A stretch of 64,000 bases of DNA from an uncultured Erysipelotrichaceae bacterium (GTDB taxonomy: Bacteria > Bacillota_I > Bacilli_A > RF39 > UBA660): NCBI GenBank assembly GCA_902767375.1, contig CACXGV010000042.1, forward strand, positions 1,188 through 65,187. The letters are read 5' to 3'. Below, piece by piece: positions 1 to 58,557 of the stretch; positions within the stretch are counted from its first letter, which is position 1; every line of letters starts with the position of its first letter. A program made the position numbers and the translations under genes. Below the pieces are notes generated by a model, which made no database searches, had not been told where the DNA came from, and saw nothing but the letters and a program-made list of their open reading frames with translations.

Positions 1-1342
1 AACTACTTAAAAATTCATTTGATTCAACTGAGATGGTACCAACTAGTATTGGCTGGCCAGTAGCATGAACTTCTTTAATAAATTTTACGATAGCATTATA
101 TTTACCTTTTTCAGTGGCAAACATTAAATCTGCCATATCTTCTCTAATACATGGTTTGTTAGTAGGAATTTCGATAACATACATATTATAGATTTCTCTA
201 AATTCTTCTTCTTCGGTTTTAGCTGTTCCGGTCATACCAGAAATCTTACCATACATTCTAAATAGATTTTGGAAGGTAATAGTCGCCATTGTTCTGGTCT
301 CTTCGTTTATTTTTACGCCTTCTTTTGCTTCAATGGCTTGATGTAAACCTTCACTAAATTGACGTCCATGCATTAAACGTCCAGTAAATTGATCTACTAT
401 TACTACAGCGCCTTCTTCATCTACTACATAGTCAACATCAATCTTCATACCATAATTAGCTTTTAATGCTTGGTTAATATGGTGTACTAGTGCAGTATTG
501 TTGGCGTCATATAAATTATCTATTTTGAAGTAATTTTGAACTTTTTCGCTTCCTTCTGGGGTTAGCATAACTGTTTTAGTTTTTTCATCTACAATATAAT
601 CATCTTCAGCTTTTAATTTTTTTACAGCACGATCTGCTTCTACATAAAGGTTAGCAGAGTTCATTTTACCACCAGAGATAATTAATGGCGTTCTGGCTTC
701 ATCAATTAACATAGAGTCTATTTCGTCTAAGATACAATAATTAAGACCTCTTTGAGTACGATCTTTTTTATCTTGAACCATATTATCTCTTAAATAATCA
801 AAACCAATTTCATTGTTGGTTGAATAAGTTATATCGCAATTATAAACTTGTTGCTTTTCTTCAGGAGATAGTTCTCTTAAATTAACACCAACTGTAATAC
901 CTAAAAAATCATATACAGGGCCCATCCATTCTGCATTACGTGCAGAAAGATATTCGTTAACAGTTATAACATGAACTCCTTTCCCTGCCAATGCATTTAG
1001 ATAGGCTGGTAAGATAGTTGTTAAAGTTTTTCCTTCTCCTGTTTTCATTTCCGCAATGTTACCATAGTGAATAGCTAGTCCACCAATTAATTGGACACGG
1101 TATGGTTTTTCGCCTATCTTACGATAAGCTGCTTCTCTAACAGTAGCGAAAGCTTCTACTTTAATATCTTCTAATGTTTCGCCATTTGCTAGTCTTTCTT
1201 TAAATTCTTTTGTTTTAGCTTGAAGAGCTTCATCACTCATTTTTGAATACTCTTCATCTAAAGCTTCTATTTCATCGGCAATTTTGCCAAATCTTTTTAA
1301 TTCTTTATATTCTGTGTCTACAAGTTTTCTAAGTAAACCCAT
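1..1342 (-). CDS. secA: Preprotein translocase ATPase SecA, N-terminal part (gene continues beyond window start)
   Basis: Hand translation from the ATG at 1342 (RBS GAGGGTGA upstream) gives [32 protein letters not shown]...[28 protein letters not shown]...[15 protein letters not shown]. This is the canonical SecA motor N-terminus with Walker A MKTGEGKT. It is absent from the ORF track because it is open at the window edge. Confidence 0.9.
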
Positions 1343-1413
1343 CAGAATCACCCTCTCAAGATACTATTATAACAAAAAAATAGGACTTTTACATCCTATT
1401 TTAACTAGTTTAA

Positions 1414-37280: not shown

Positions 37281-38852
37281 CTAATTTACTTCTACAATCT
37301 CTTCTGCAAATATATCTAATGCTGAATCAATTATTTTAACATCTTCGTTAATTTTTGGTTCATCTATGTAACTATATTCTTTGTCTTTATTTTTTATAAA
37401 TTGCTTTTTTTCTTTTTGCCATTCATCATCAGTTAAGCATATTGTTTTTATATTAATTTTTTCACTTTTTAATAGTTCTTCTTCTATTAAATTGGATTTT
37501 TCATTATACAAAAGTGCGGTTGATGATGATTTTATTGAAAACAATACATTAGTTGGCGAAACAACTTCGATAGAAAGATCTTCTAGAAGAGATAACATTT
37601 CAACATTTGATTTATCAATCTCTTTATTTATAAATATTTCCCAAGATTTTTTAAATTTTTCTTTTTCCTGTTTTGAAGCTCCAACAAATGCATTATTAAT
37701 TCTAATTTTTTTAATATCATCGGAAATTACAGGCTTTGATTCTATTTTTAATTCTGCACTTTCTTCTTTTTCACTTGTTACTTCGGTTGGCTTTGAAATT
37801 ATTTCCCGGGAAATAATTTCAGGGTTTTTTTCTTGGGAAATAATTTGGGAAATATTACTTACAATAATCATTTTTATAAGTAATAAGGCATCTTGCTTGT
37901 TATAACATTTTATTAGTTCGTTTGCCATTGTTTTAATTTGATCTATTGATAAAAAGTGTTTTTTTCCAGAAACTATCCCTATTTCCAAGGTATAAAGGTA
38001 GTTTAATATTTTTGAAATTAGCAAGTTTGTGTCCAATCCTTTTTTTGAATATTCATCGAATATTCCTTCAAGCTTTTCTATGTCCCCTTTAGATAAACAG
38101 TTAAATATCTCTTCAACCTCATTTTCAGTTAATACACCAAAAGATTCCTGGATTAAATCCACAGTTATTTCTTTTTCTTCTTTTGATAATTGATCAAGTA
38201 AACTCAAAGCATCTCTCATACCGCCATCAGCTAATGAAGCTATATAGTTAGCGGCTTCTTGGTTTATTTTTATTTTTTCCAATTTAGAAATTCTTAATAT
38301 ATTTTCTGCTATAATTTCAACTGAAATTTTTTGAAAGTTAAATCTTTGACATCTTGAAAGGATTGTTATTGGTATTTTTTGGATTTCAGTTGTTGCTAGA
38401 ATGAATATTACATGCTTTGGTGGTTCTTCTAATATCTTTAAGAACGCATTCCAAGCACTTTGTGACAACATGTGTACTTCATCTATTATATATACTTTAT
38501 ATTTACTGAATGCAGGTAATATTTTTGCGTTATCTCTTAAATCTCTTATTTCATCAACTCCATTATTTGAAGCAGCATCTATTTCAATTATATCTGGAGA
38601 TTGTTCATAGTTAATGCATGGCATACATTTATTGCATGGTATACCATCTTTAGGATTTTCACAGTTTATTGTTTTAGCAAATAGTTTTGCTGTACTTGTT
38701 TTTCCTGTTCCTCTAGGGCCGGAGAATAAATAAGCGTGTGAAATTTTATCATTAATTATAGAATCTATTAGTAATTTTTTTATTGTGTTTTGACCAAATA
38801 AGGTGTTAAAGTCTTGTGGTCTATATTTACGGTATAATACTTTATATGCCAT
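37281..38852 (-). CDS. dnaX: DNA polymerase III subunit gamma/tau
   Basis: GPRGTGKTS is the Walker A motif. The zinc module is CENP..GIPCNKCMPC. IIDEVHMLS and SRC are also present. Confidence 0.93.
   Translation of the reverse strand: MAYKVLYRKYRPQDFNTLFGQNTIKKLLIDSIINDKISHAYLFSGPRGTGKTSTAKLFAKTINCENPKDGIPCNKCMPCINYEQSPDIIEIDAASNNGVDEIRDLRDNAKILPAFSKYKVYIIDEVHMLSQSAWNAFLKILEEPPKHVIFILATTEIQKIPITILSRCQRFNFQKISVEIIAENILRISKLEKIKINQEAANYIASLADGGMRDALSLLDQLSKEEKEITVDLIQESFGVLTENEVEEIFNCLSKGDIEKLEGIFDEYSKKGLDTNLLISKILNYLYTLEIGIVSGKKHFLSIDQIKTMANELIKCYNKQDALLLIKMIIVSNISQIISQEKNPEIISREIISKPTEVTSEKEESAELKIESKPVISDDIKKIRINNAFVGASKQEKEKFKKSWEIFINKEIDKSNVEMLSLLEDLSIEVVSPTNVLFSIKSSSTALLYNEKSNLIEEELLKSEKINIKTICLTDDEWQKEKKQFIKNKDKEYSYIDEPKINEDVKIIDSALDIFAEEIVEVN
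37800..37815. promoter_or_regulatory. Noc-binding-site (NBS)-type palindrome TATTTCCCGGGAAATA inside dnaX
   Basis: This perfect 16-bp palindrome contains the 14-bp B. subtilis NBS consensus ATTTCCCGGGAAAT. Degenerate half-sites (TTGGGAAATAATTTGGGAAAT) follow it. It lies in the poorly conserved tau linker (peptide ...EIISREIISKP...). Confidence 0.55.
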
Positions 38853-39451: not shown

Positions 39452-39464
39452 TCATTACTTATTA

Positions 39465-39480
39465 TGTTTCACGTGAAACA
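39465..39480. promoter_or_regulatory. parS: parS site 1 (TGTTTCACGTGAAACA)
   Basis: This is a perfect 16-bp palindrome matching the Firmicute parS consensus TGTTNCACGTGAAACA. It lies 14 bp upstream of the ffs -35 element. Confidence 0.8.
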
Positions 39481-39529
39481 ATTTTAGCAATTTTTTAAAA
39501 TTAAGGTTTTTATATATTTGTGAATTTTT

Positions 39530-39545
39530 TATTTCCCGGGAAATA
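39530..39545. promoter_or_regulatory. NBS-type palindrome TATTTCCCGGGAAATA (between parS 1 and 2)
   Basis: This perfect 16-bp palindrome is identical to the copies at 37800 and 40115. It contains the NBS consensus ATTTCCCGGGAAAT. Confidence 0.6.
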
Positions 39546-39565
39546 TTTTTTTGATAATTTTTAGA

Positions 39566-39581
39566 TGTTTCACGTGAAACA
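39566..39581. promoter_or_regulatory. parS: parS site 2
   Basis: Perfect TGTTTCACGTGAAACA. The palindrome extends to 18 bp (ATGTTTCACGTGAAACAT). Confidence 0.8.
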
Positions 39582-39693
39582 TTGTTTATGAAATATATAT
39601 TTTTTATCTATTTATTTAATAATTTTAGCAATTGATTGTTCTATAAAATATTTTATTTAGTTTCTTAAATAATTTCCTAATATTTATAATTGA

Positions 39694-39709
39694 TGTTTCA
39701 CGTGAAACA
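39694..39709. promoter_or_regulatory. parS: parS site 3
   Basis: Perfect TGTTTCACGTGAAACA. It forms the left end of 117-bp repeat unit A. Confidence 0.8.
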
Positions 39710-39791
39710 TTGTTGATAACTATTAATAAATATAGTTATATTACTCACCTCTAAGTTTTACAATGTGTTTTATGTACTGTTCATAATTTAA

Positions 39792-39807
39792 TGTTTCACG
39801 TGAAACA
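39792..39807. promoter_or_regulatory. parS: parS site 4
   Basis: Perfect TGTTTCACGTGAAACA. It forms the right end of repeat unit A, 98 bp from site 3. Confidence 0.8.
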
Positions 39808-39951
39808 TTAAATTTTAAAATACTATTTGTCCGCTTTGTTATATTATAATTGCTATTGCTGTTTTTTTAATATCAGTTCTTGTAATTAAGATGCTTTTTT
39901 AGTTTTTTTATTTTGGTTTTGCTGTTTGCAATTTTTTTAATGGTTTTTTTA

Positions 39952-39967
39952 TGTTTCACGTGAAACA
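39952..39967. promoter_or_regulatory. parS: parS site 5
   Basis: Perfect TGTTTCACGTGAAACA. It forms the left end of repeat unit B. Confidence 0.8.
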
Positions 39968-40049
39968 TTGTTTATAACTATTAATAAATATAGCAATATT
40001 AGTCATTTTTGAGTTTTATAATATATTTTATGTATTGTTCTTGAATTAA

Positions 40050-40065
40050 TGTTTCACGTGAAACA
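40050..40065. promoter_or_regulatory. parS: parS site 6
   Basis: Perfect TGTTTCACGTGAAACA. It forms the right end of repeat unit B, 98 bp from site 5. Confidence 0.8.
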
Positions 40066-40114
40066 TTAATTACAGATTTTAAAAATCTGAATTTTTTAAA
40101 TTTTGTTTACTTTT

Positions 40115-40130
40115 TATTTCCCGGGAAATA
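40115..40130. promoter_or_regulatory. NBS-type palindrome TATTTCCCGGGAAATA (right flank of the parS array, abutting the gyrA terminator)
   Basis: Perfect 16-bp palindrome, the third identical copy in the window. Confidence 0.6.
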
Positions 40131-45848: not shown

Positions 45849-46295
45849 TTAGCTATTTTTTCTATTTTTAAAATTGTTCTCTAAAGATAAAGATTTTAGA
45901 TATTGATTATTAATTATTCGATAAGTAGAATCTACTTCTAAACTTTCTTCATTTAAAAATTCTATACGACATTTATTATCATAATTAGTAATTCTACTAA
46001 TATTAGATAGATTTATCCAGGCACATTCTTTTAATCTTGGAGAACATGTGGGAAAAAATATTAATGGTTGATTTTCTGATACAATTATTGGTGCCTTGTA
46101 ATTAAAACCACTTATATCATATGTTCCTTTTATTCTTCCTTCCATACTACTTCCATTATAACGACAATTATCATCCATGATTCTAGAAATTTTTTGATCA
46201 ATTATATAACAATCATGTTTTTCATATACTACTGTTTTCTTTTTTCCTAATGGAAATAATGCTAGCGTATCGTTACTAATAAAATAATCTTTCAT
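45849..46295 (-). CDS. comK: Competence transcription factor ComK-family protein (short, 148 aa)
   Basis: C-RYNGSSMEGRIKGTYDISGFNYKAPIIVSENQPLIFFPTCSP....CAWIN aligns motif for motif with B. subtilis ComK as I remember it (CRFFGSSYAGRKAGTYEVT..HKPPIMV...IFLFPTLS....CGWIS). Confidence 0.8.
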   Translation of the reverse strand: MKDYFISNDTLALFPLGKKKTVVYEKHDCYIIDQKISRIMDDNCRYNGSSMEGRIKGTYDISGFNYKAPIIVSENQPLIFFPTCSPRLKECAWINLSNISRITNYDNKCRIEFLNEESLEVDSTYRIINNQYLKSLSLENNFKNRKNS

Positions 46296-55329: not shown

Positions 55330-55412
55330 TTTAATCATCTCTTTTTTTATGAAATTGGTTGAAAAATAATCAAAAATAAAGTATTATTGTATTAGAATAG
55401 GAAGGGTATTAT

Positions 55413-56624
55413 ATGAATAGAGAATCAACAATTCAAAATATTAATGTAGATCTCATTATTCCAAATAGATTTCAACCAAGACTTACTTTTGATGAGAATG
55501 CTTTAAACGAACTTGCAAAATCTATTAAAGAGCATGGTATTATTCAACCCTTAGTTTTAAGAAGAGTAGATGACAAATATGAAATTATTGCTGGTGAAAG
55601 AAGATATAAAGCTGCTCAGCTTGCTGGGCTATCAGAAGTTCCTGCAATAATTACTGATATAGATGATAATAAGAGTGCAGAGGTTGCTTTAGTTGAAAAT
55701 GTGCAAAGAAAAAATTTGAATTCAATGGAAGAGGCGCGTTCTTATAAAAAAATATTAGATAAGGGTTATTTAACTCAAGAGGCCTTGGCACAAAAAATGG
55801 GAATTTCTCAATCTAATTTAGCTAATAAGTTAAGATTATTAAATCTAGCACCTGAAGTACAAGAAGCACTTGTTAATAATAAGATTAGTGAAAGACATGC
55901 AAGAAGTCTCTTATTAGTAAATGATCCTCTTAGACAAATTTCACTTCTTAATAGAATTATTGCAGAAAGATTAACAGTAAGACAACTAGATGCAATTATT
56001 AAGGAAAATACAACTACAACTGTAGTTCCAAGTCCTGTTAATATAACTCCATCTGTTGAAATTCCTGATGTGGTTAAAGAGGAGACTGTTACTCCAACAG
56101 AGGTGGTAGAAAATTCTCCTGTACAACAAGAAGAATCTGCTGTTGTAACAAATGAGGAAGTATCAGCTTCAGATAATGATACTGAAGGGGCGCAAACAGA
56201 TGTTGAAACACTTGATACTTTAGATGATGATATTGAGAAACATGATAATCCATTAGATAGAATTTTAGAAAAGATTACAGGACCACAATATCCTTCTCTT
56301 GAAGATGAAGCAGCTAATTTAAATATGGATACAGACGATTATTTTAATCCTTTTAATAATGTTGATAATGAACCAATGCCTCAATTTGATGCTCCAAAAG
56401 AAGAAGAAACTGCAGTAATAGAAGAGAAAGAAGAGGAAGTTTCAGAGGTAGTTGAAGAAAATCCTCAATTTGTAATTGAGCCTAATAATTTCGAATCAAT
56501 TAAGAAAGCATATAATAATTTAAGAAATGAAATCGAAAAAGCCGGTTATAAAATAACGACTGAAGATTTTGATTTTGAAGATATTTATCAAATAATTATT
56601 AAAATTGATAAACCAGAAGAATAA
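55413..56624 (+). CDS. noc: ParB-family protein with a Noc-type recognition helix, a long acidic insertion and no N-terminal membrane-targeting extension
   Basis: The ParB N-domain is marked by IPNRFQPR and IIAGERRYKAA. The HTH region is LTQEALAQKMGISQSNLANKLRLLNLAPEVQEALVNNKISERHARSLL. An Asp/Glu/Thr/Val-rich segment runs from about residue 200 to 345, followed by a small C-terminal domain. It lies directly after rsmG, where Bacillus noc sits. Confidence 0.75.
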   Translation: MNRESTIQNINVDLIIPNRFQPRLTFDENALNELAKSIKEHGIIQPLVLRRVDDKYEIIAGERRYKAAQLAGLSEVPAIITDIDDNKSAEVALVENVQRKNLNSMEEARSYKKILDKGYLTQEALAQKMGISQSNLANKLRLLNLAPEVQEALVNNKISERHARSLLLVNDPLRQISLLNRIIAERLTVRQLDAIIKENTTTTVVPSPVNITPSVEIPDVVKEETVTPTEVVENSPVQQEESAVVTNEEVSASDNDTEGAQTDVETLDTLDDDIEKHDNPLDRILEKITGPQYPSLEDEAANLNMDTDDYFNPFNNVDNEPMPQFDAPKEEETAVIEEKEEEVSEVVEENPQFVIEPNNFESIKKAYNNLRNEIEKAGYKITTEDFDFEDIYQIIIKIDKPEE

Positions 56625-56643
56625 GAGCTTAGGCTCTTTTTTA
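56625..56643 (+). terminator. Terminator after the noc-like gene
   Basis: AGAGC-TTAG-GCTCT is followed by TTTTTT. Confidence 0.7.
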
Positions 56644-58557
56644 TTTGGATAAATTAGGTTCTGATCCTTTTTTAAAATAATAAATAATTGATTTATTATT
56701 GTTGACATTTGCGGTTATAGGATCTAATGGTAATCCGACTATATTTTCAGGCATTTCATACCATGTTGGTTCTTTGCCTTTTTCGTAAGATTCTACAGTA
56801 TCTAACCAAATATTTTTTATTTTTTTAGAATATGATGAGTCTACATTTTTATTTAAATCATTTCCAGCCCATACCATCATTAATATATCGGGATTATAGC
56901 CAACTATCCAATAATCATTTTCGGTTGTACCACTTTTTAAAGCATATTTTCTTGTTAATTTACTATTTAAATAAATTACAGTTGGATTTAAATAATTAAT
57001 AAATGTGGAATTGTAGGTATTTGTTAACATTTCATTTAAGATAAAAAGAGAATCTTTATTCATTACTTGTTTTGCTTCTTCTTTATTTTTATATAATAGG
57101 TTTCCTTTAGAATCTTCTACTTTATCTATAAAATGGACTTTAACTTTATTTCCATAATTAGCGAGAGTGTTGTAGCTTTGTGTATAATCTAGCATATTTA
57201 TTTCATTAGCTCCTAGAGCAAGAGAGGGATTAGGCTCAAGTTTTTCTTTTAATCCAGCTATTTTTAATGTATTAATTAGTTGTTCTTCTCCTAGAAACAA
57301 ATGAGTTTTAACAGCATAAATATTATCTGAATAGGCTAGGGCAGCTGCCATAGATATTTCTTTATTACCATATTTATTAGAATGATTTTTAGGGCTATAG
57401 GTTTGATTATCTGAAAAAACAAATGTTGTTTGCTCGCTTAAAAAGGTTGATGCTTCGGTCATATTATTTTCTAATGCTGTATAGTAGAGAAATGGCTTTA
57501 TTGTTGATCCTACTTGTCTTTTAGATTTAGTAGCTCTATTATACTCACTTTTAGCATAGTTATATCCACCTGCTAAAGCCATAATTCCCCCTGTTTTCGG
57601 ATTTGTTACGATACTAGCTACTTGAACGTTATCCTTTTCATTGATGTTTTTTTGAATTGAATCATCTAAATCCTTTTGAACTTTGGGATTATAACTTGTA
57701 TATATTTTTAGTCCTCCAGATTGAATTAGTGATTTAGGTATTTCTTTTAAATTATTTAATTCATCAATAACTGCATCATGATAATACATTAGAGTTAACA
57801 TATTATTTGTTTCTCTTTTGCCATATATTTCTATTTTAGAGTAGTCTAGAGAATTGTATTCTTCATTTGAGATTACTTTATTGTCTAACATGGTTTTGGC
57901 AATTATTTTAGCTCTTTTAATACAATTATCATAGTTACTAATTGGATTATTATTTTCCGGACTTCTAGGAATCCCAGCAAGCATTGTAGCTTCTTCTAGA
58001 GAAATTTCACTAGCTTTTTTATTAAAATAATATTCACTAGCACTTTCTATTCCATAATTTCCTTGCCCATAATTAATAGTATTAAGATATCCTTCTAAAA
58101 TATCATCTTTAGAATAGTGAGCTTCTAATCTAATTGTTAAGAAAGCTTCTTCTATTTTTCTTTTCCAGGTTTTATCAAAATCTAAATATAAGTTTTTAAC
58201 ATACTGCTGACTTATAGTAGATGCCCCTTGGACGATAGATTTATTAATTATATTTAAATATATTGCTTTTATAATTCTAAGATAATCAAATCCATGATGA
58301 GTATAAAAGTTTTTATCTTCTGTTGAGATAGTAGCATTTTTTATATAATCATTAATATTATCTATTTTTGTCCATTTTGAATGATTATTTGATTCAAATA
58401 TTAGTTCATTATTATAATCATATAGATAAACTGAATTGGCTGAATTTAGCGTTATCTTAGGGGATAGATAAGCATAAATATAAAGTGAGGCTAATATTAC
58501 AATAAAACATATATAATTAAATAATAAGATTTTATAAAAAATATTATTTTTTTTCAT
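56641..58557 (-). CDS. Class A penicillin-binding protein (glycosyltransferase plus transpeptidase)
   Basis: The GT51 motifs are EDKNFYTHHGFD, GASTISQQ and RKIEEA. The transpeptidase motifs are STIKP (SxxK), SDN (SxN) and KSGTT (KTG). Confidence 0.88.
   Translation of the reverse strand: MKKNNIFYKILLFNYICFIVILASLYIYAYLSPKITLNSANSVYLYDYNNELIFESNNHSKWTKIDNINDYIKNATISTEDKNFYTHHGFDYLRIIKAIYLNIINKSIVQGASTISQQYVKNLYLDFDKTWKRKIEEAFLTIRLEAHYSKDDILEGYLNTINYGQGNYGIESASEYYFNKKASEISLEEATMLAGIPRSPENNNPISNYDNCIKRAKIIAKTMLDNKVISNEEYNSLDYSKIEIYGKRETNNMLTLMYYHDAVIDELNNLKEIPKSLIQSGGLKIYTSYNPKVQKDLDDSIQKNINEKDNVQVASIVTNPKTGGIMALAGGYNYAKSEYNRATKSKRQVGSTIKPFLYYTALENNMTEASTFLSEQTTFVFSDNQTYSPKNHSNKYGNKEISMAAALAYSDNIYAVKTHLFLGEEQLINTLKIAGLKEKLEPNPSLALGANEINMLDYTQSYNTLANYGNKVKVHFIDKVEDSKGNLLYKNKEEAKQVMNKDSLFILNEMLTNTYNSTFINYLNPTVIYLNSKLTRKYALKSGTTENDYWIVGYNPDILMMVWAGNDLNKNVDSSYSKKIKNIWLDTVESYEKGKEPTWYEMPENIVGLPLDPITANVNNNKSIIYYFKKGSEPNLSK

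Follow-up and report, generated by a model that had tools for sequence, protein, structure and literature searches.

What becomes of Noc, a protein that prevents cell division through DNA (nucleoid occlusion), when its N-terminal membrane-targeting helix is missing? This question is raised by a gene in a stretch of 64,000 nucleotides from an uncultured Erysipelotrichaceae bacterium (contig CACXGV010000042.1), which we analyzed over its full length and refer to as the window. The gene, an open reading frame (ORF) at 55413..56624 on the forward strand, encodes a Noc-type member of the ParB family of 403 amino acids. Its translation includes IPNRFQPR, GERRYK, and GISQSNLANKLRLL...KISERHARSLL together with an acidic insert, and every string quoted in an original prediction, made from the letters of the DNA, is present in it. 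On balance, we favor the view that the gene is the noc descendant of its lineage and encodes a ParB-fold clamp that would be specific for the Noc binding site (NBS) and dependent on cytidine triphosphate (CTP), with its output running through motifs in a linker and with a separate Soj-Spo0J pair serving parS.

The folded parts of the protein, with confidence values (predicted local distance difference test, pLDDT) from an AlphaFold2 model, are listed here.

55428..55706, forward strand: ParB_N CTP-binding domain (Pfam PF02195, 1.4e-35), residues 6-98, with the boxes FQPR, GERRYK, and ENVQR; it starts at strand beta1, without alpha1 and alpha2 (pLDDT 84-90)
55710..56009, forward strand: helix-turn-helix (HTH) domain HTH_ParB (Pfam PF17762, 1.2e-30), residues 100-199, with specificity residues Q133, K139, N144, and R161, from alignment to Noc 7NG0/7OL9
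56463..56621, forward strand: small C-terminal domain, residues 351-403, predicted to consist of a helix followed by a beta-hairpin (H360-376, E381-388, E391-398; pLDDT 65-81), presumed to serve in dimerization

Pfam detected nothing beyond ParB_N and HTH_ParB in the 403-residue protein, and nothing significant when the linker or the C-terminal domain was searched alone. The best NCBIfam model was nucleoid_noc (TIGR04285), with 269.8 bits over model positions 2-196; with the insert removed in silico, the score was 282 bits and the alignment covered positions 2-255 of 255, while the clade's own Spo0J scored 239 bits on the same model. The top sequence matches in the PDB were Noc structures (7NG0, 7NFU, and 7OL9, 185-193 bits, versus 143-164 bits for Spo0J/ParB). 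A Foldseek search with the AlphaFold model placed Noc entries first, in the same order as the sequence search, and superposed the DNA-binding domain on the Noc-NBS complex 6Y93 with a TM-score of 0.86-0.89. The CTP-binding boxes (FQPR, GERRxR, ENxQR) are present, with the last Arg of the second replaced by Lys, and in an alignment of 58 relatives F20, Q21, P22, R23, G61, E62, R63, R64, E95, N96, Q98, and R99 are invariant.

The residues expected to read DNA point in the same direction. Four positions distinguish the two families, R173/T179/A184/G201 in ParB versus Q/K/K/R in Noc (Jalal et al. 2020, PMC7383237). In the NBS, adenine 1 is the base read by Q173 and cytosine 6 the base read by R201; one Lys at either 179 or 184 permits NBS reading, and the R...G pair is absolutely conserved in ParB (PMC7383237). 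Alignment to the Noc structures gives the set Q-K-N-R for the window protein, in which Q133 and R161 correspond to Noc Q173 and R201. The original prediction that these residues are Noc-like is borne out by this alignment, in which R173 and G201 of ParB are absent, and the Noc and Spo0J strings that it gave match the alignments to solved structures.

The C-terminal domain gave fainter signals. The last 63 residues of the protein alone align to TIGR04285 positions 214-255 at a weak E value of 0.025, and the domain has no match to ParB_C (PF23552) at E up to 10, a model that a Spo0J from a different gene context (P0406, whiA-type, described below) matches at 7e-4. The motif EDFDFEDIYQIIIKI in this domain is kept family-wide. 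We know of no solved Noc C-terminal domain for comparison. Since the linker-less protein aligns end to end with TIGR04285, we regard the C-terminal domain as probably Noc-like and the insert as a true insertion before it. By hidden Markov model, structure, specificity residues, and position beside rsmG, the protein is Noc-derived, and its earlier description as an atypical Noc holds.

The missing part of Noc lies at the N-terminus, where the DNA upstream of the start codon leaves no room for it.

55359..55387, forward strand: promoter-like site TTGAAA-17-TATTAT in the gap between rsmG and noc, by consensus match only
55398..55406, forward strand: TAG stop codon (55398-55400) overlapping GGAAGGG (55400-55406), a plausible ribosome-binding site; read from the sequence, the ORF begins at the first start codon past the TAG

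In alignments to solved Noc structures, residue 27 of the B. subtilis and the G. thermoleovorans protein pairs with residues 3-6 of the window protein; therefore, approximately 24 residues, containing the membrane-targeting alpha1, alpha2, and the connecting loop, are absent. Sixteen residues precede the P of PNRFQPR, and residues 1-18 are not amphipathic (hydrophobic moment at most 0.31). Because the TAG is in frame 15 nt 5' of the ATG and the rsmG-noc gap is 83 bp, no upstream start of any kind, non-ATG starts included, lengthens the protein or restores an N-terminal helix. An alternative upstream start is thereby ruled out, and the earlier claim that the protein cannot carry the helix segment is confirmed. 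The window protein resembles the engineered Noc N-delta-26 (PMC8429893). Adams et al. (2015) reported that this N-terminus is extremely conserved, every Noc homologue they examined being predicted to have an amphipathic helix, and deletion of ten N-terminal residues abolishes Noc function (PMC4331003). CTP gates this helix, and the current model of Noc rests on it (PMC4331003, PMC8429893). We found no published description of such a helix-less Noc variant.

The same architecture extends well beyond one genome. By word-indexed search, 120 close relatives were retrieved, with lengths of 384-481 amino acids. Exactly 16 residues precede PNRFQPR in 89 of them; the other 31, with 20 or 25, are most likely cases in which the start codon was called further upstream. 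An exhaustive HMMER search covered 1.84 billion cluster representatives (50% identity), and the figures given here are from the best 150, which are proteins of 227-673 amino acids. PNRFQPR was found in 145 of these 150, with 13-21 residues before the motif in 142 of the 145, and the median linker is 189 residues long, 21% acidic and 6% basic. The specificity positions are Q...R wherever they are readable, with QKNR in 83 representatives, followed by QKSR, QKTR, and others. Close relatives also occur among GTDB representatives, as uncultured Erysipelotrichaceae (rumen RUG metagenome-assembled genomes) and Bacilli. The family comprises no fewer than 150 clusters at 50% identity and is frequent in metagenomes from the human gut and the rumen. 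These traits are common to a large clade of uncultured low-GC Bacilli. The short N-terminus and the long linker that the original prediction called unusual are therefore real, but they are shared by nearly all of the best 150 representatives and are not peculiar to one genome. GERRYK, also listed there as unusual, is not: GERRxK occurs in 145 of the 150, the clade's own Spo0J proteins read GERRVK, and B. subtilis Noc tolerates R91A, a change of the final Arg in GERRWR (PMC4331003). Given this tolerance and the clade norm, we consider GERRYK unremarkable.

Five representatives (P0311, P0312, P0339, P0361, and P0385) have no Lys or Arg at either permissive position and read QTNR, QTTR, QTSR, QTER, or QTGR. 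As QTAR-type variants in a Caulobacter ParB scaffold do not bind DNA, other compensating contacts must exist in the QTNR-type representatives.

Between the HTH and C-terminal domains lies the acidic insert. The original prediction put it at about 145 residues, and it measures 150. In the rows below, conservation refers to the 58 aligned relatives, and lineage A denotes a sister lineage in which soj and spo0J follow noc.

56010..56459, forward strand: acidic, intrinsically disordered insert, residues 200-349, with 43 D/E versus 6 K/R by composition, no Pfam match, and AlphaFold2 disorder (pLDDT ~32) save for the helix at 280-288
56205..56225, forward strand: linker motif 1, ETLDTLD, residues 265-271, with L267 and D268 at least 90% conserved; lineage A has a similar ADLDSLL
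56250..56309, forward strand: linker motif 2, a predicted helix PLDRILEKI (280-288; AlphaFold2 pLDDT ~60), then GPQYPSLEDE (290-299)
56334..56360, forward strand: linker motif 3, DDYFNPFNN, residues 308-316, with F314 invariant and F311, P313, and N315 at least 90% conserved; DYF is kept in lineage A

The linker is mostly unalignable, and these three motifs stand out as conserved islands. In motif 2, S295 and N302 are invariant, and P291, Y293, L296, E297, D298, and E299 are at least 90% conserved; the consensus is a hydrophobic helix pattern followed by GPxYPSLEDExxNMN (280-303). Residues 279-289 have the top hydrophobic moment of the whole protein, 0.77, with a net charge of zero. The long Noc proteins of lineage A (L009:9740-11518; L020, L021, L026, L039) have the linker motifs SPLMP, KFINYGEIDDD, ADLDSLL, FKFxxPAE, and DYFKAP, of which DLDSLL and DYF echo those of the window protein. 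This different set indicates that motif content differs between lineage A and the lineage of the window (lineage B), with the disordered arm kept in both. A disordered acidic arm that evolves fast but retains short conserved motifs bears the signature of docking sites, and the linker motifs may accordingly form an effector module. Likenesses to the beta-clamp motif (QLxLF), the SSB tail, and the FtsZ C-terminal peptide were judged by eye; they were inconsistent across subgroups and were not adopted.

Both NBS and parS sites are present in the window. Site rows are unstranded.

37801..37814: perfect NBS ATTTCCCGGGAAAT inside dnaX (37281..38852, reverse strand)
39465..40065: six perfect parS (TGTTTCACGTGAAACA) between gyrA and tadA, presumed targets of a separate ParB; 0.09 expected by chance
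39531..39544: perfect NBS that follows the first parS by 66 bp
40116..40129: perfect NBS that follows the sixth parS by 66 bp

These three perfect matches to the 14-bp NBS lie in 64 kb of 27% GC DNA, for which chance would give 0.29 sites with two or fewer mismatches. The six parS sites that had been reported earlier are all found as perfect matches, and six such sites within 600 bp of 27% GC DNA are strong evidence for a parS-specific ParB in the genome. Perfect NBS and perfect parS side by side imply two binders. A parS-NBS composite stands at both ends of the array (39464-39545 and 40049-40130), with a start-to-start offset of exactly 66 bp in each and 76% identity between the copies. From this twice-repeated module it follows that loading sites for two ParB-family clamps appear to be deliberately juxtaposed, ~8-9 kb from dnaA. 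A 258-bp tandem duplication with 87% identity (39690-39811 and 39948-40069) made two of the parS pairs, indicating that the array has grown by local duplication. The NBS at 37801-37814 encodes the palindromic peptide I-S-R-E-I in an apparently variable, low-complexity stretch of DnaX, and looks like a binding site kept at little cost to the protein. In two lineage A rumen loci (L056:11247 and L112:2118), a perfect NBS lies ~2.65 kb 5' of the long noc at the same offset, by position probably within mnmG. Their presence in both lineage A loci suggests that the canonical NBS is used by the family beyond the window.

Where, then, is the protein that binds parS? The DNA of the window, at 27% GC, comes from the origin region of a Firmicute. 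Rightward from the origin the genes run rnpA-yidC-jag-mnmE-mnmG-rsmG-noc, and leftward dnaA-dnaN-comK-recF-gyrB-gyrA-(parS array)-tadA-dnaX-recR...mfd...secA. The gene 5' of noc is rsmG/GidB. The gene 3' of it (56641..58557) is convergent and encodes a class A penicillin-binding protein (PBP) with Transgly and Transpeptidase domains.

56623..56638, forward strand: terminator-like hairpin and T-run, shared with the convergent PBP gene

A terminator and a convergent PBP gene thus stand in place of soj and spo0J, as first described. Neither a tblastn search with the 403-residue protein nor a deviant Walker A scan revealed another ParB-family gene or a ParA in the 64 kb, in agreement with the claim that this is the only ParB-family gene at the rsmG locus. 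The ori cluster gidB-noc-parA-parB is ancestral in Firmicutes and broken in Streptococcaceae, according to the one evolutionary survey we found in which both Noc and Erysipelotrichia are mentioned, and which says no more on the matter (PMC8136486). The window has the rsmG-noc adjacency of the rsmG(gidB)-noc-soj-spo0J cluster, but PBP follows; the full cluster with a long Noc is found in lineage A, with the order rsmG-noc(long, 448-592 amino acids)-soj-spo0J-mscS-DUF951-abgT-ychF-rpsF-ssb-rpsR...dnaB and a canonical Spo0J with R...G at the specificity positions (KSRSH...MGHAR, N-terminal KRRALGRGL). Lineage B has the order rsmG-noc-PBP(-)-x-x-prfA-prmC-spoIIR-mntP-murA; besides the window organism, it includes a relative with 65% overall identity in Noc and an abundant group from the human gut with 55%. 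This common order indicates an old breakpoint directly after noc, shared by the members of lineage B. The specificity set Q-K-x-R is alike in both lineages, and there is no sign that the loss of soj-spo0J as neighbors changed DNA specificity.

In JGI metagenomes, the Spo0J signature GKSRSHITNM was detected by DNA-pattern scanning at 120 loci, in whiA-soj-spo0J and rsmG-soj-spo0J contexts; none of the 120 shares genes with the window. A protein search with a lineage A Spo0J gave only lineage A loci in the five clusters inspected. The whiA type, a third context besides those of lineages A and B, has the order (uvrB-uvrA)-lgt-(trxB)-whiA-soj-spo0J-mscS-DUF951-abgT-ychF (L070, L073, L087, L160, and L166-L190); it is abundant in gut and rumen metagenomes and has its partition genes away from rsmG and noc. 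One whiA-type Spo0J belongs to a Candidatus Aphodocola sp. (NCBI), and loci of this type occur in the same rumen projects as the window organism. In a neighbor-joining tree, whiA-type Spo0J is sister to lineage A Spo0J, mirroring the position of lineage B Noc as sister to lineage A Noc. The lineage B noc lies 187 kb from one end of a 293,977-bp contig, and whiA-soj-spo0J lies at 232 kb in a contig of 291,617 bp. If both contigs are colinear, the distance from noc downstream to spo0J would be ~45 kb, with the two genes on the same strand, and insertion of the block from PBP to whiA between noc and soj would fit. The whiA-soj-spo0J locus is the likely home of the parS binder.

Taken together, the protein shares with Noc (YyaA) of B. 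subtilis and G. thermoleovorans (TIGR04285; 7NFU, 7NG0, 7OL9, 6Y93) a ParB-fold CTP domain, an HTH with Q...K...R, a small C-terminal domain, a gene directly 3' of rsmG/gidB, and a genome with the 14-bp NBS. It differs from Noc in lacking alpha1 and alpha2, in N at position 184, in GERRYK for GERRWR, in a score below the curated cut-off, in the acidic disordered insert with its conserved motifs, and in having no soj-spo0J after its gene. With ParB/Spo0J (TIGR00180; 6SDK, 1VZ0, 6T1F), it shares the N-terminal and DNA-binding folds, the CTP boxes, and probably clamp behavior, but it has Q and R for R173 and G201 and lacks a Lys/Arg peptide for ParA, an adjacent parA, and a ParB_C match.

The mechanism that we propose is as follows. 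The protein would load at NBS sites and, with CTP, spread as a clamp as Noc does. Its output would have shifted from the N-terminal membrane helix to the motifs of the disordered acidic linker (ETLDTLD; the amphipathic helix with GPxYPSLEDE; DDYFNPFNN), which most likely serve to dock one or more partners, for example a protein of the membrane or of cell division, on Noc-coated DNA; a weak membrane contact by the internal helix is the less likely route. The earlier claim of a Noc that has lost its N-terminal membrane helix and gained a different module agrees with a helix that cannot be encoded and an insert with conserved motifs. Recognition of parS and stimulation of Soj would fall to a separate Soj-Spo0J pair of canonical type, whose genes would lie beyond the window, moved out of the ancestral rsmG-noc-soj-spo0J order by a rearrangement with its breakpoint directly after noc. 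More tentatively, we suggest for this large and abundant gut and rumen clade of Bacilli that nucleoid occlusion, or some related function derived from Noc, might work on another effector principle: a CTP-gated NBS clamp might use docking motifs on its acidic arm to capture or sequester a partner, replacing the lipid-binding N-terminal helix regarded as universal in Noc, and load at a fixed offset of 66 bp from parS at the origin. SlmA of E. coli is a TetR-fold protein that binds DNA at specific sites and influences the divisome through protein contact, not through a membrane tether. Docking of a division protein by the linker motifs would follow the same logic, with SlmA as a functional analogue only; the folds are unrelated.

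Several results weigh against this reading. For the descent of the protein, both TIGR04285 scores are under the curated NCBIfam cut-off for Noc of 315 bits, N replaces K at position 184, the neighbor-joining grouping with canonical Noc and away from the clade's Spo0J is weakly supported (41%), and overall identity to Noc (49-51%) is not above that to Thermus Spo0J (49%). The position of homologues between rsmG and soj-spo0J in sister genomes is a stronger argument for common descent with noc. Because the Noc-defining N-terminal helix is absent and the curated score is missed, we do not file the protein as a canonical Noc, but as a Noc-derived variant. For the output, the partner of the linker is hypothetical, and the helix of motif 2 is strongly amphipathic in the subgroup of the window but not in that of the human gut. 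For the separate parS binder, no Spo0J was tied to the window organism, and no contig was shown to carry both noc and spo0J. No sample match to the Noc contigs was found (the two closest rumen Spo0J loci share one sample, ERZ1029115, with an hpf contig only), and tetranucleotide comparison of the whiA-type loci with the window was non-discriminating (r = 0.81 versus 0.82 for a lineage A locus). This last set of negatives is also what could favor another explanation from the original prediction, in which a single ParB-family protein serves the roles of both Noc and Spo0J, including at the parS array, and no other ParB exists in the genome. Neither soj nor spo0J occurs in the 55 kb upstream or the 8 kb downstream of the gene, both are likewise missing from the locus in every lineage B relative examined, and no Spo0J is assignable to the window organism. 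We nevertheless consider this explanation very improbable. Long Noc and canonical soj-spo0J coexist in sister lineages, whose Noc has the same specificity residues as the window protein beside an adjacent Spo0J; the dual role is therefore not supported. The N-terminal peptide of ParB contacts and stimulates ParA (cited in PMC4331003), and the window protein has no such peptide. Perfect NBS and perfect parS are both kept, and related bacteria often have soj-spo0J loci with no noc beside them. In addition, the switch to NBS reading lies in Q173 and R201, and ParB proteins keep RxxG without exception (PMC7383237).

The linker itself admits two further interpretations. It is unlikely, in our judgment, that the anchor has simply been relocated, with the internal amphipathic helix (280-288), not a protein partner, tethering Noc-coated DNA to the membrane by the classical Noc mechanism. 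The high hydrophobic moment of residues 279-289 and the predicted helix amid disorder would suit such an anchor, as would the hydrophobic, often Phe-rich pattern at this position across the lineage, the Noc anchor being also Phe-rich and weak by design (PMC4331003). It would have the architecture of RocS (S. pneumoniae) and RicO (S. aureus; bioRxiv 10.64898/2026.03.06.710092), origin-proximal DNA binders with a membrane helix C-terminal to the DNA-binding domain, although these have unrelated DNA-binding domains, are not CTPases, and carry the helix at the extreme C-terminus in a basic context. The segment in the window protein, in contrast, has no net charge, and its strongly acidic flanks are unfavorable for anionic lipids and argue against lipid binding, which also counts against a weak membrane contact in our own proposal. 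The helix is strongly amphipathic only in the subgroup of the window, and the commonest variant, the human-gut GFNLFNF, has a moment of only 0.27. The best-conserved residues, YPSLEDE and FNPF, lie outside the helix and resemble docking motifs. A role as an organizer of the origin domain, with no part in division, appears more improbable still. In that case, the protein would bind NBS near the origin beside ParB-parS, and the linker would be a spacer or entropic brush. All three NBS lie within 8-11 kb of dnaA, two of them at the fixed offset from parS, and the linker varies greatly in length and sequence across the family. However, conservation of motifs within each lineage, and partly between lineages, argues against a mere spacer, and the clustering of NBS was seen within 64 kb only.

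A very diverse family lacks the N-terminal helix on which the model of Noc is built, yet retains the CTP boxes, the NBS-reading residues, and the NBS sites. Either a Noc-type clamp can work with no membrane contact of its own, or that contact has been transferred to the disordered arm. The family may thus be a natural experiment on the minimal output module of a ParB-family CTP switch, and it offers concrete short motifs for partner fishing. It also shows the ancestral Firmicute ori cluster gidB-noc-parA-parB to be broken in a lineage besides Streptococcaceae.

Two other features of the window are of note. A gene with a ComK domain (45849..46295, reverse strand; PF06338, 4.8e-35) lies between dnaN and recF, a position kept in the relatives L024 and L191. 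At the left end of the window (1-1360, reverse strand) lies the 5' portion of secA. Other assemblies of this organism have a phage-type integrase after secA (L161:12822-13361), and every contig stops there, which suggests an integrated mobile element.

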